A DNA stretch of 64,000 nucleotides from an uncultured Candidatus Rokubacteria bacterium. GTDB taxonomy: Bacteria > Methylomirabilota > Methylomirabilia > Rokubacteriales > CSP1-6. Below are positions 54,620-58,301 of this stretch, one piece after another. How positions within the stretch are numbered: position 1 is the first letter of the stretch; each line of letters starts with the position of its first letter. The position numbers and the translations under genes are program-made. The notes under the pieces were generated by a model. That model saw nothing but the letters and a program-made list of their open reading frames with translations, searched no databases and was not told where the DNA came from. Location of the stretch: positions 1-64,000 of the forward strand of contig CAVVEU010000040.1 of NCBI GenBank assembly GCA_963747235.1. Reading direction: 5' to 3'.

Positions 54620-55975
54620 TCAGATACCCGTGACGGCCTTGATCGAGTCGCGGGTGACCGAGACGAGGCGGTCCACCTGCTCCTCGCTGACGATCAGCGG
54701 CGGGGCGAAGAAGATGTGCTCGAGGCGGGCGCGCGTGATCACGCCGCGCTTGGTCATCTCGGCCAGCACGCGCGGGCCGACCTTCTTGTCGGCGCCGAAC
54801 GGCGCCTTCGTCCCGCGGTCCTCCACCAGCTCGACGGCGGCCAGCAGGCCCTTGCCGCCCCGGATGTCGCCCACGTGCTTGTGGTCGCCGAGCGCCTGCT
54901 GCAGGCCCTTGTGGAGCCGCGTGCCCATGGCCGCCGCGCGCTCCCAGAGCCGCTCGCGCTCCATGATCTCGAGGTTCTTGAGGCCCACCGCGCAGCAGGT
55001 GGGATGCCCCGAGTAGGTGTAGGCGTGCATCCACTTGTCTTCCGGCTTCACCTCGTCCATGGCTTGCTTGATCGCCTTCGAGACCATGATGCCGCCGAGC
55101 GGGAGGTACCCGGAGGAAATGCCCTTCGCGAAGGAGACCATATCCGGGAGCACGTTCCAGTGCTCGAGCGCGAACCACTTGCCGGTCCGACAGAAACCGG
55201 TGATGACCTCGTCGGCGATGAAGAGCACGTTGTGCTTGTCGCAGACCTTGCGCACCAGCGGGAAGTAGTCGTCGGTCGGGTAGAGCACCCCGCCGCCACC
55301 GTGAATCGGCTCGGCGATGAAGGCGGCCACCGTGTCCGCCCCTTCCCGGACGATCGCCTCCTCGAGCAGGCGCGCGGCGGTCTGCCCCGCGGTCTCGCCC
55401 GGCTTGGAGCCCTCCTGACGGTACGGATAACACGTTGGAATATGCACGAAGCCCGGCACGCGCGGCTCGAACATCTTCCAGTAGGCCGCCATGCCGGTGG
55501 CGCTCATCGCCTGCAGGGTCACGCCGTGATAGGCGAGGCTGCGCGCGATGATCTTCACCTTGTCGGGCTTGCCCTTGGTCTTCCAGTAGAAGCGCGCGGT
55601 CTTGAACGCGGACTCGTTGGACTCGGCGCCGCCCGAGGTGAAGAACACGCCCTGCATGTTGGGATACGCGATCGTCATCAGCTTGGAGGCGAGCTGGATG
55701 GCCGGGATATTGGTCGAGCCCGAGTACGCGGAGTAGTAGGCCAGCTCGCGCATCTGCTCGGCCGCCGCGTCCGCCAGCTCGGCGCGGCCGTGGCCCACGT
55801 TCACGTTCCAGAGCCCGGCGAGGCCGTCGATGTACTCGCGGCCCTGCACGTCGGTCAGCACGGCGCCGCGGCCGCGCACGTAGACCATCGGCTCCAGATG
55901 ATCGCTCGGGTGATGCAGCGGGTGGATCAGATGGTCCTGGTCGTCCTTGATGAGCTGCGCTGCCTCGAGCGGCAT
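54620..55975 (-). CDS. Class III PLP aminotransferase (omega-amine transaminase-like)
   Basis: DGLAGLWNVNVGHG, SGGAESNE, YHG, EPIHG, DEVITGF, FAKG, TYSGHP; AGGAGG SD. Confidence 0.93.
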   Translation of the reverse strand: MPLEAAQLIKDDQDHLIHPLHHPSDHLEPMVYVRGRGAVLTDVQGREYIDGLAGLWNVNVGHGRAELADAAAEQMRELAYYSAYSGSTNIPAIQLASKLMTIAYPNMQGVFFTSGGAESNESAFKTARFYWKTKGKPDKVKIIARSLAYHGVTLQAMSATGMAAYWKMFEPRVPGFVHIPTCYPYRQEGSKPGETAGQTAARLLEEAIVREGADTVAAFIAEPIHGGGGVLYPTDDYFPLVRKVCDKHNVLFIADEVITGFCRTGKWFALEHWNVLPDMVSFAKGISSGYLPLGGIMVSKAIKQAMDEVKPEDKWMHAYTYSGHPTCCAVGLKNLEIMERERLWERAAAMGTRLHKGLQQALGDHKHVGDIRGGKGLLAAVELVEDRGTKAPFGADKKVGPRVLAEMTKRGVITRARLEHIFFAPPLIVSEEQVDRLVSVTRDSIKAVTGI

Positions 55976-55985
55976 CGGGCGCCTC

Positions 55986-56415
55986 CTACAGGCTCTGGTG
56001 ATAGATGGACGTCGCGGGCGCGTGCGCCCGGTAGTCACCACCCGGAATGGGCACGCCCCGATCGAGCGGACCGATGTACCAGTAGATGGAGGCGGCCAGC
56101 TCGCGGCCGGCCTCGCTCCGGACGGTGACTACCCGGCGATGATACTGGGGTCCCTCCGCCGAGTCCAGCGCCGCCCACAGCGCCGGATCCACGACCCGGT
56201 AGACCTCGCCGTGGATCGCGACCTCGGGATCGGGCACCGCGCCCGGATACGAGCCGAGATCGACGATCCGTGCCCGCACCTGCCCGCGTCCGACGAAGCT
56301 CGGCGCGTCCCGTGAGCAGCCGATGCAGGCGGAAACCGCGCATCAGCGTCCCGTAGGTGAAGAGGAGCGCGGGCTTACTTCCCGCGATCGCGGGACTCGG
56401 CCTCTTGCTCCTCAC
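55986..56415 (-). CDS. Gamma-glutamylcyclotransferase (AIG2/YtfP-like), frameshift near 56297; start uncertain
   Basis: LFTYGTLMRG, then DLGSYPG, HGEVY, LDSAEG, YHR, IPGGDY. Confidence 0.8.
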
Positions 56416-56527
56416 GGGAGCATCCGGCGGGCGAGGCTCAGGTCTGGATGCCGAAGCGCGGCAGGACCCAGCGGCTGAGCGCGACCCAGCCGACCAGGAT
56501 ACCGATGACGATGAGCGCGGATTCCAT
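56375..56527 (-). CDS. Candidate 50-aa single-TM selenoprotein (UGA at 56440-56438)
   Basis: GGAGG SD, ATG, MESALIVIGILVGWVALSRWVLPRFGIQT-TGA-ASPAGCSREEQEAESRDRGK-TAA, with a SECIS-like hairpin after the TGA. Confidence 0.62.
56400..56437 (-). promoter_or_regulatory. Putative bacterial SECIS of the mini-protein
   Basis: UGCUCC-CGUGA-GGAGCA perfect upper stem with loop at +22 to +26 from the UGA; outer GCCUC/GAGGC pairing. Confidence 0.6.
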
Positions 56528-56533
56528 CGCCGC

Positions 56534-57190
56534 TCAGGCCTCCGGGTCCGGAGCGACCGCCTGGAGCACCGCGCCCAGGAAGTCACGCTCCGGGATCGCG
56601 CCCTCGAAGCCGACCTTGTCGTTGATGACGATCTTGGGGACGGCCATCACCTGGTAGCGCTGGGCGAGCTCGGGGAACTCGGTGGCCTCGATGCACTCCG
56701 CCCGCACCTTCGGCGACGCGATCGCCATGTGCTGCGCCAGGCGCACGGCCCGGGGGCAGTGGGGTCAGGTCGGGGTCGTGAAGACCTTGATCGTGACGTC
56801 CTCGGTGAGCCCGGCCAGCGCCGTCTTGGTCTCCTCGCTCAGGCCCGCCTCCCCGGTGGACACCGCGACGATGGAGTCGATCAGGTTGGAGAACTCGTAG
56901 CCGCCCGGCAGCCCGAGGAAGCGAATGCCGTAGTCCTGTGCCCCCTCCACCACGATCGCGGGCGACTCGCTGATCCCGTACGCGGCGGCCTGGTCCCGCT
57001 CGATGTGCGGGTTCAGCACCGCCACGGAGAGCTGGTCGGACAGCGCCGCCACCTCGCGGACCAGGGCCACCGTCTGGGCATTGTGCTCGCCGCCCAGCTC
57101 GGAGGCGAACACGGTCAGCTTCACCGGCCCGCCGAGGCGCTCGAACTCCTTCCGGACCGCGGCCTCGTCCTGTGCGGAGAGAAAGCCCAT
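56534..57190 (-). CDS. Protein-disulfide oxidoreductase (two thioredoxin folds, AhpF-NTD/PDO type) with selenocysteine UxxC site
   Basis: ORFs 56765..57190 and 56534..56746 are in frame across a TGA: KVFTTPT-U-PHCPRAV...VMAVPKIVIN...FEGA; also GLPGGYEF. Confidence 0.88.
56732..56759 (-). promoter_or_regulatory. Putative bacterial SECIS of the PDO gene
   Basis: CUGC-CC-CCGGGC-CGUGC-GCCUGG-C-GCAG hairpin with loop at +18 to +22 from the UGA. Confidence 0.65.
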
Positions 57191-57299
57191 GGCTCGGAGT
57201 ATACCGGATCGCGTCCTCGAGGCGGGGTTTCGTCTGTGGATCTCCGCCTGTTGCGCCTTCGCGATGACCGGCCGCGGGTTTGGGGGGCCTGCCGACGCG

Positions 57300-58301
57300 C
57301 TACTCGATCACCTGATCCGCCCGCTGAAGGAGCGCCGGCGGGATCGTCAGGCCGAGGGTCTTGGCGGTCTTGAGGTTGAGGACCAGCTCGAACTTGGTCG
57401 GCTGCTCTATCGGGAGATCGCCGGGCTTCGCGCCCTTCAGGATCTTGTCCACGTACTCGGCCGCTCGACGGTACACCTGAAGTCGATCCGCACCGTAAGA
57501 CAACAACCCGCCCGCCTCAGCCCATTCCCTGGACGGATACACTGCAGGAAGCCGCAACTTCGCCGAGAGGTCGGCTATCTCCCGGCGGAGGCTATACGTC
57601 AACGGATCCCCGAGTACGAGCAGGCCACCTACGCCGGCCGAGACCGCCGCGTGCAAAACGGGTGGCACCTGATCGGCGGTTCTCGCTTCGAGGACCTCCA
57701 GACGGGTACGGTCGGCTTCCGCGGCTGTCTTGATCTCTTTGAGCGCCAGCCGCGTGAAGGGCGTCTCCGGGTTCGTCAGCACCGCGATCACTTGCTTTCC
57801 TGGACTGAGCTCCTTCAAGAGCTGTAGGTGCTTGCCCCCAATCTGTGTCACGCCGCTCAGGCCCGTGACGTTTCTCCCGGGCCGGCCGAGGCTGGAGACC
57901 AGCCCGGCCCCTACCGGATCGCCGACGGTCGTGAACACGATCGGGATGGTCATGGTGGCGGCCTTCGCCGCCTGTGCCGTGAGTGTCCCGAATCCAGCTA
58001 TCAACACGTCCGGCCTGCCTCGAACCAGCTCTCTCGCCATCTGTGACAGTCGTTCTGGATGTCCTTCAGCCGATCGGTACTCGAACGCCATGTTCTTGCC
58101 CTCGCCGTACCCCAGCTCGTGGAGCCGCTCCAGCAGCGGCTGCATCGTGGTGTCCTCCCCGGGAGTGAGGGAGAGGAAGCAGATTCGGTACACCTTCCCC
58201 GCCGGCTGCGCCGCGGCGCCGAGCGGCGCGGCGGCGAGGCTGCCGGCGATGAGCACCATGAAAGCGCGTCGCGGCATCTCGGGCGAGCGGACAGAAGCCA
58301 T
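57300..58301 (-). CDS. Orphan ABC substrate-binding protein (ABC_sub_bind family)
   Basis: RRAF signal, TIPIVF...DPVGAGLVSSLGRPGRNVTG, GGLLSYG, YVDKILKGAKPGDLPIEQPTKFELVLNLKTA. Confidence 0.9.
   Translation of the reverse strand: MASVRSPEMPRRAFMVLIAGSLAAAPLGAAAQPAGKVYRICFLSLTPGEDTTMQPLLERLHELGYGEGKNMAFEYRSAEGHPERLSQMARELVRGRPDVLIAGFGTLTAQAAKAATMTIPIVFTTVGDPVGAGLVSSLGRPGRNVTGLSGVTQIGGKHLQLLKELSPGKQVIAVLTNPETPFTRLALKEIKTAAEADRTRLEVLEARTADQVPPVLHAAVSAGVGGLLVLGDPLTYSLRREIADLSAKLRLPAVYPSREWAEAGGLLSYGADRLQVYRRAAEYVDKILKGAKPGDLPIEQPTKFELVLNLKTAKTLGLTIPPALLQRADQVIE

Follow-up and report, generated by a model that had tools for sequence, protein, structure and literature searches.

We studied a small gene on the minus strand of a 64,000-nucleotide stretch of DNA from an uncultured Candidatus Rokubacteria bacterium (the whole stretch is called the window here), and comparison with its homologues led us to read its in-frame TGA, at 56440-56438, as a selenocysteine (Sec) codon. 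We give this reading a probability of roughly 0.86; it rests on sequence comparison, and there is no experimental evidence of selenium in the product. A protein of about 50 residues would rank among the smallest bacterial selenoproteins, and this one would be anchored in the membrane. The predicted peptide is a member of a large, widespread and unnamed family with the signature T-[Cys/Sec]-x4(5)-Cys, which annotation pipelines overlook, since its genes are listed as a 29-residue stub or not called at all.

The gene starts with an ATG at 56527-56525, separated by a 6-nt spacer (GCGGCG) from the stop codon of the upstream gene (TGA, 56536-56534) and located 11 nt downstream of a GGAGG ribosome-binding site (56539-56543, minus strand); all of these were read directly. 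Codons 1 to 29 (56441-56527) translate to MESALIVIGILVGWVALSRWVLPRFGIQT, i.e., a short N-terminal stretch, a single hydrophobic helix and then the juxtamembrane motif RWVLPRFGIQT, which is conserved. Past the TGA (56438-56440; putative U30) the frame continues for 20 codons (56378-56437), translated as ASPAGCSREEQEAESRDRGK, up to a TAA at 56375-56377, which was read directly and would be the real stop of the ~50-residue product. Cys36, encoded at 56422-56420, forms with the putative Sec a U30-x5-C36 pair. The ORF list of the window presents only a 29-residue ORF and no extended form. A preliminary description of this DNA had reported an ATG 6 nt after the stop of a protein disulfide oxidoreductase gene and behind a GGAGG, a frame open past the TGA to a TAA with T-U-x5-C, and a 50-residue product absent from the ORF track. 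All these elements were present as described, and only the strand had to be corrected, to minus.

A six-frame search with the 50-residue reading gave matches with exactly one internal TGA in 27 of 60 relatives, the window excluded. A profile of those relatives, used on 251 genomes of the window's phylum, produced 56 specific matches (E <= 2.2e-5). The phylum-wide tallies take in the unpublished genomes G029, G094 and G135, and none of the 56 matches came from these three. TGA was found at codon 30 in 56 of 56 phylum homologues (52 were flagged as having one TGA and the other four were read individually); TAA, TAG, TGC and TGT were absent from that codon in all 56. The real stops of the same phylum genes, taken from 54 complete tails, were TGA in 27, TAG in 23 and TAA in 4, so that the constancy of TGA at codon 30 goes beyond the local stop-codon preference.

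A scan with one genome per species revealed 398 loci, mostly in Planctomycetota and also in Desulfobacterota, Myxococcota, Acidobacteriota and others, and the best 80 were kept. The codon at the Sec position in the 79 readable loci of other phyla among these best 80 of 398 was TGA in 61, TGC in 14 and TGT in 4; neither TAA nor TAG was found there in any of the 79. At the protein level, a word-indexed search returned only five 29-residue forms, and an exhaustive profile search was therefore needed: the profile of 28 relatives, compared with 1.84 billion representative proteins, retrieved 1088 of them at E <= 0.001. Among the best 149 of these 1088 proteins, 74 have as their last residue the one just before the TGA position, 70 carry a Cys at that position, and the remaining ones present W (3), R (1) or E (1). 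Because the homologue sequences are mutually related, the counts exaggerate their independence. As a separate observation, the proteins P0009, P0060, P0135 and P0141 have R or W at the Sec position with the tail read through, P0009 being otherwise identical to the peptide of genome G003. These may be natural CGA or TGG variants, or the gene caller may have translated TGA with another code.

Conservation extends beyond the TGA. At the loci of other phyla (best 80 of 398), a Cys occurs in frame at +5 in 60 of 60 TGA forms examined and in 18 of 18 Cys forms, with the motif T-[U/C]-M-S-G-x-C, and the second Cys is likewise at +5 (T-C-M-S-G-x-C) in 53 of the 70 Cys-bearing proteins among the best 149 of 1088. 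This alignment of putative Sec codons with Cys is the classical Sec/Cys signature. Two membership tests were met here, namely an in-frame UGA aligned with Cys in homologues, and a frame and residues conserved 3' of the UGA. The tails past the Sec position span 14 to 156 codons across relatives; the medians in other phyla (best 80 of 398 loci) are 37 codons for TGA forms and 34 for Cys forms, and the 54 complete tails of the window's phylum have 14 to 48 codons after the TGA (median 20). The second Cys of the phylum homologues is at +5 in 7 and at +6 in 31 (38 of 54 in total), and 16 of 54 have none within 10 codons of the TGA, which means that the redox pair is not strictly retained in the phylum. 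The conserved downstream Cys expected beforehand thus held for the TGA forms elsewhere, but is not universal in the window's own phylum.

The preliminary description had called for homologues with TGA or TGC/TGT at codon 30, and had held that the Sec reading would fall if homologues ended there with TAA or TAG, had no Cys versions or conserved nothing past the TGA. The homologues called for exist, and no TAA or TAG was seen at that codon in the 56 phylum forms or the 79 readable loci elsewhere. Cys versions are plentiful (TGC or TGT in 18 of those 79 loci, besides the 70 proteins above), and residues past the TGA are conserved. The same data bear on whether there is a gene at all, since a frame this short could be a chance opening between two real genes in GC-rich DNA, which is rich in open frames. 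That idea is already contradicted by conservation and can be set aside with near certainty: R19, W20, L22, P23, R24 and G26 are invariant across 28 relatives, and the family counts 1088 database relatives and 398 genome loci in several phyla.

One contig of the source assembly contains selA (578 bits), selB (365 bits) and tRNA-Sec (69.3 bits) together; selD (227.8 bits) is located elsewhere in the assembly, and all four score above curated cut-offs. The membership test of finding selA, selB, selD and tRNA-Sec in the genome was met, and the lack of Sec machinery in the source genome, which would also have refuted the reading, does not apply. Within the phylum, selA was detected in 215 of 251 genomes; of the 56 carriers of the TGA form 50 have it, and the 6 in which it was not found are 78-95% complete. 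Outside the phylum it was present in 4 of 5 TGA-form and 4 of 5 Cys-form genomes examined, and the complete genome of Lacipirellula limnantheis (Cys form) gave no selA match above the cut-off. The expectation that TGA forms occur only in sel-positive genomes was met by most carriers and missed by those without a detected selA. The selA distribution is consistent with the Sec reading but weakly discriminating, because a gene near-universal in the phylum (215 of 251) will co-occur with the TGA form in any case.

Bacterial SECIS elements (bSECIS) are modelled as a hairpin that follows the UGA at a fixed short distance and has a G early in its small apical loop. In the window, folding, statistics and covariation point to a SECIS-like element at 56396-56435 (minus strand), composed of an interrupted lower stem and an upper hairpin, UGCUCC-CGUGA-GGAGCA (56422-56406). 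The hairpin has 6 bp and an energy of -8.1 kcal/mol, its stem begins 15 nt and its loop 21 nt past the UGA, and G is the second loop base. The 6-bp hairpin with a CGUGA loop reported earlier is thus real, and the distance of 22 nt given for it was only approximate. The 66-nt stretch past the UGA folds with z = -2.64 (1 of 200 shuffles was as stable), and the 36-nt hairpin region by itself is unexceptional (z = -0.02), so that the weight of the hairpin comes from its conservation in relatives and not from the single sequence. The bSECIS model is mentioned in the available part of a 2026 selenoprotein review (PMC13188914).

Hairpins in the relatives were scored with fixed criteria that follow the bSECIS model: an energy of -7.5 kcal/mol or better, a loop start 17-24 nt past the codon, a G within the first two loop bases, and contiguous hairpins only. 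These were met by 35 of 56 phylum forms versus 2.9 expected from dinucleotide shuffles. At the loci of other phyla (among the best 80 of 398) they were met by 49 of 60 TGA forms versus 1.1 expected and by only 2 of 18 Cys forms versus 0.8 expected. The window hairpin satisfies them as well, and the search for a bacterial SECIS proposed in advance was in this way successful; so was the membership test of a SECIS hairpin with an early loop G. Hairpin energies differed between TGA and Cys forms (p = 2.9e-5, with relatedness uncorrected). The other 21 of the 56 phylum hairpins fell below the energy threshold when only contiguous stems were scored. In a homogeneous subgroup of 13 sequences, 95.2% of the cells pair, and compensatory changes on both sides are seen in 5 of the 8 pairs; the covariation of 0.397 compares with 0.161 for shuffled alignments (0 of 500 reach it) and with at most 0.112 for slid registers. 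When one fixed register is imposed on all 56 phylum sequences, 76.5% of the cells pair, since the register varies from one hairpin type to another. The family has several kinds of loop (CGUGA, GGA, GGGUN, AGUU, GUC and GUU). In one locus of the window's genus (L029) the Cys codon is changed to CGC (Arg) together with a matching change in the opposite stem arm, which indicates that in this genus the Cys codon is shaped by RNA structure too. RNAalifold on unrefined MAFFT alignments of the 48 nt past the UGA returned no consensus structure, and an Rfam scan of 55900-57300 gave nothing relevant, there being no Rfam family for the hairpin.

Two other hairpin observations may be recorded. A second perfect hairpin, CCCGCG-AUCG-CGCGGG, is located at 56380-56395 (minus strand), just 5' of the TAA of the extension. 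Three Cys forms (L145, L166 and L122) still have a strong hairpin at the SECIS position and may be recent Sec-to-Cys conversions.

The hairpin also has to be weighed under the assumption that the gene simply ends at the TGA, with a 29-residue peptide as its only product and the hairpin acting in some other way, for instance by stabilizing the transcript, by terminating it or by regulating the gene downstream. TGA often serves as a stop in this GC-rich genome, 29-residue forms appear in the output of gene callers, the probable GTG start of the downstream gene lies in the hairpin loop (see below), and the 16 phylum tails without a nearby Cys would be no surprise. We nevertheless consider a terminating TGA very unlikely. 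It leaves unexplained why the codon is TGA in 56 of 56 homologues when only half of the true stops are TGA, and why the position aligns with Cys and is followed by an in-frame Cys at +5 in all 60 TGA forms elsewhere. In addition, the hairpin is kept beside other genes and mostly missing from Cys forms, and no U run follows it.

The gene directly upstream offers a comparison for the Sec reading within the same operon. It encodes a thioredoxin-fold protein disulfide oxidoreductase (56534-57190, minus strand) that is itself a selenoprotein, with a score of 253.9 bits to TIGR02187 (PDO_seleno_TRX) against a cut-off of 185. An in-frame TGA at 56767-56765 gives the motif UPHC at residue 142 of 218, and under translation table 11 the gene falls apart into two ORFs (141 and 70 residues). 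Its SECIS consists of a CGUGC loop on a 6-bp stem, the loop starting 17 nt past the UGA. The gene is an internal positive control, its SECIS being built like that of the small gene (6-bp stem and CGUG-type loop). The membership test for TIGR02187, which concerns the upstream gene only, was met, since the cut-off was passed and U/C-x2-C lies in the second thioredoxin-like half. In 35 of 49 phylum loci the oxidoreductase gene immediately precedes the small gene on the same strand.

Downstream, the window carries a GGACT-family (gamma-glutamyl cyclotransferase-like) gene at 55986-56415 (minus strand), identified by PF06094 on the intact gene of a relative. Near 56297 it has one extra base compared with all three close relatives (L019, L020 and L022), so that its coding sequence is divided between two frames; either the gene is a pseudogene or the assembly is in error here. 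A GTG at 56415-56413 (minus strand) lies within the apical loop, in frame with this gene. Neither the window nor the three close relatives have another in-frame start codon ahead of the conserved LLFTYGTL, so this GTG is probably the start of the downstream gene in the window, with an overlap of 41 nt with the extension. The caveat raised in the preliminary description, a possible GTG start of the downstream gene in the same loop, was right about the GTG and its frame. As an explanation of the hairpin it fails, because the CGUGA loop is also kept in relatives where a different gene follows. Of the 49 phylum loci, 31 have a GGACT-family gene downstream and 32 a class-III aminotransferase gene. 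In another locus (L036, genome G013), a 1-nt difference past the TGA makes the tail continue in the reading frame of the GGACT-family gene downstream, with the hairpin kept and the Cys lost.

A coupling of the two genes in the window's lineage remains possible. Bacterial Sec insertion competes with termination. It is conceivable, and compatible with Sec at codon 30, that both the 29-residue and the 50-residue products matter and that the binding of SelB, or the passage of the ribosome through the hairpin, also sets the translation of the GGACT-family gene, as a selenium-dependent switch. That competition, together with the GTG being the sole in-frame start, would fit such an arrangement. We regard the switch as improbable, however: in four genus members (L024, L025, L029 and L031) insertions put the start of the downstream gene past the stop of the extension, the loop is kept where no GGACT-family gene follows, and the proposal has no expression data behind it.

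Under the Sec reading, SelB with Sec-tRNA(Sec) would bind the hairpin ~20 nt downstream of the UGA and insert Sec, and translation would continue for 20 codons past the UGA to the TAA, giving a ~50-residue protein. Some termination at the UGA would be expected, with a 29-residue form alongside. The product would consist of an N-terminal membrane helix, the juxtamembrane segment, the U-x5-C pair and a charged, disordered tail. An AlphaFold model of a Cys-form relative (60 aligned sequences) shows a helix at residues 2-24 (pLDDT 91-93) and a low-confidence coil from the LPxFG segment on. The net charge is +1.6 in the 13 residues past the helix versus about 0 at the N-terminus. The positive-inside rule then assigns the Sec/Cys pair to the cytoplasm; the tail is thus probably on the cytoplasmic side, as an inference from the predicted charges. 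There, at the membrane surface, the pair may cycle between selenol/thiol and selenenylsulfide, a step that is inferred and has not been shown. In the window's phylum its partner would be the thioredoxin-fold selenoprotein encoded 6 nt upstream, also by inference.

Gene neighbourhoods were counted with tblastn of representative neighbours on 3-kb flanks; the rhodanese queries cross-matched and were recounted on core domains. A clustering of the neighbourhoods by longest ORFs was dropped, as it was dominated by spurious GC-rich frames. At the 79 loci of other phyla (best 80 of 398), a rhodanese-YgaP membrane protein was found in 37, in 36 of them on the same strand and at a median of 54 nt upstream. 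A metallo-beta-lactamase (MBL) core of the persulfide-dioxygenase type occurred in 22, TauE/SafE in 17, a CoA-disulfide-reductase (CoADR)-like core in 7 and a second Pyr_redox_2 protein in 5. Taken together, 38 of the 79 loci had one or more of these neighbours, and the other 41 had efflux pumps, anti-sigma factors or thioredoxin as neighbours. The cultured Lacipirellula limnantheis carries, in this order, genes for CoADR-rhodanese, MBL-rhodanese, the small Cys-form protein, TauE, Pyr_redox_2 and a methyltransferase. In a lower-GC class-level relative (L099 in genome G061, 157-1590), the order is an ArsR-family regulator, a thioredoxin-like protein, a Zn-ribbon protein of the FmdB type and the small TGA-form gene. 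The tail of this last gene was seen to be open for ~48 codons, up to the ATG of the next gene.

These neighbours suggest a role in reactive sulfur, or possibly selenium or metal, handling. The function, namely that of a selenol/thiol pair tethered to the membrane and cooperating with partners of the thioredoxin-fold or sulfur-transfer kind, is inferred only, from gene neighbourhood, and so is its redox activity; of the membrane-anchored Sec/Cys redox peptide proposed at the outset, the Sec part is strongly supported and the redox role has only this neighbourhood behind it. In other phyla the partners would be the products of the rhodanese-YgaP, persulfide-dioxygenase-like, TauE and thioredoxin genes, again by inference. 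Clusters of dioxygenase-rhodanese, SQR and TauE genes are described, in the available parts of the sources, as sulfide detoxification systems (PMC12934615, PMC5702731, PMC5823870). About half of the other-phylum loci (best 80 of 398) have genes of sulfur transfer and sulfide detoxification around them, which makes a so far unrecognized participant in that pathway a testable lead. A bolder, joint interpretation is that the family is a missing membrane component of bacterial sulfide/persulfide detoxification, which we hold to be rather unlikely as it stands. The tethered selenol/thiol would pick up sulfane sulfur at the membrane, e.g., from sulfide:quinone oxidoreductase or rhodanese, and either pass it on to persulfide dioxygenase or to partners with a thioredoxin fold, or else gate the TauE exporter. 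Sec would take the place of Cys wherever a faster nucleophile is an advantage, and in the window's lineage the start codon in the SECIS loop would tie translation of the next gene to selenium supply.

Searches of Pfam-A and NCBIfam at E <= 1 gave no credible match for the window peptide or for eight Cys forms, the rows returned being far below cut-offs, so that membership in any family of these collections (including TsoA, MerT PF02411 and SelK/SelS) was not met. The databases name family members only as 'hypothetical protein', and the ESM Atlas does likewise (score 0.88). One Cys form of 208 residues (P0048) has an in-frame thioredoxin fusion (TIGR01068, 105.7 bits) and matched the database through the fused part only; it either speaks for a thioredoxin partnership or is a gene-calling read-through. 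The earlier statement that the peptide cannot be assigned to a characterised selenoprotein family stands as far as curated families go, but the peptide is no orphan, its family having 1088 proteins. Table 1 of the 2026 review, as far as the available part extends, has 119 prokaryotic selenoprotein families and among them no small single-helix U-x4/5-C membrane family (PMC13188914). According to the same part of the review, a 2026 groundwater-genome study (Deng et al.) has 'potentially novel candidate selenoproteins', along with 63 selenoprotein genes in a Methylomirabilota genome (PMC13188914). The present family would enlarge the already large selenoprotein set reported for this bacterial group. 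The curated resources checked contain neither the protein family nor its role; an earlier description in Deng et al. 2026 or Haft & Tolstoy 2025 is not excluded. The recoding mechanism is the known bacterial one.

Compared with known systems, the hairpin resembles the bacterial SECIS of the E. coli fdhF type in lying a short distance 3' of the UGA with an early G in a small loop, and differs from it in its unrelated sequence and in the several loop types of the present family. The upstream PDO_seleno_TRX protein shares with the small protein a Sec/Cys redox motif, the operon and the build of the SECIS, but is a soluble, 218-residue protein with a thioredoxin fold and U-x2-C, whereas the small protein lacks that fold, and its motif is U-x5-C, or U-x4-C in other phyla. 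TsoA (LULAxC, NF045695), the putative mercuric transport protein PF02411 and the dual-CXXC family NF041197 are also short or membrane proteins with Sec near Cys, according to the part of the review available (PMC13188914). They are set apart by a different motif spacing and by the lack of any model match at E <= 1.

In eukaryotes, SELENOS and SELENOK have a single-pass membrane helix and a disordered tail. The small protein is like them in its single N-terminal helix, its disordered tail and a Sec that is perhaps paired with a nearby Cys, which in SelS are Sec188 and Cys174, as given in the accessible part of the source (PMC3628699). It has no sequence relation to either (no Pfam match at E <= 1), and the membership test for the SELENOK/SELENOS type, Sec in the last few residues, was not met, as Sec would be residue 30 of 50. 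The putative Sec is beside the membrane, 21 residues from the C-terminus, whereas that of SELENOK and SELENOS is at the C-terminal end. The small protein is a quarter to half the size of these two, and its SECIS lies inside the reading frame, as in bacteria.
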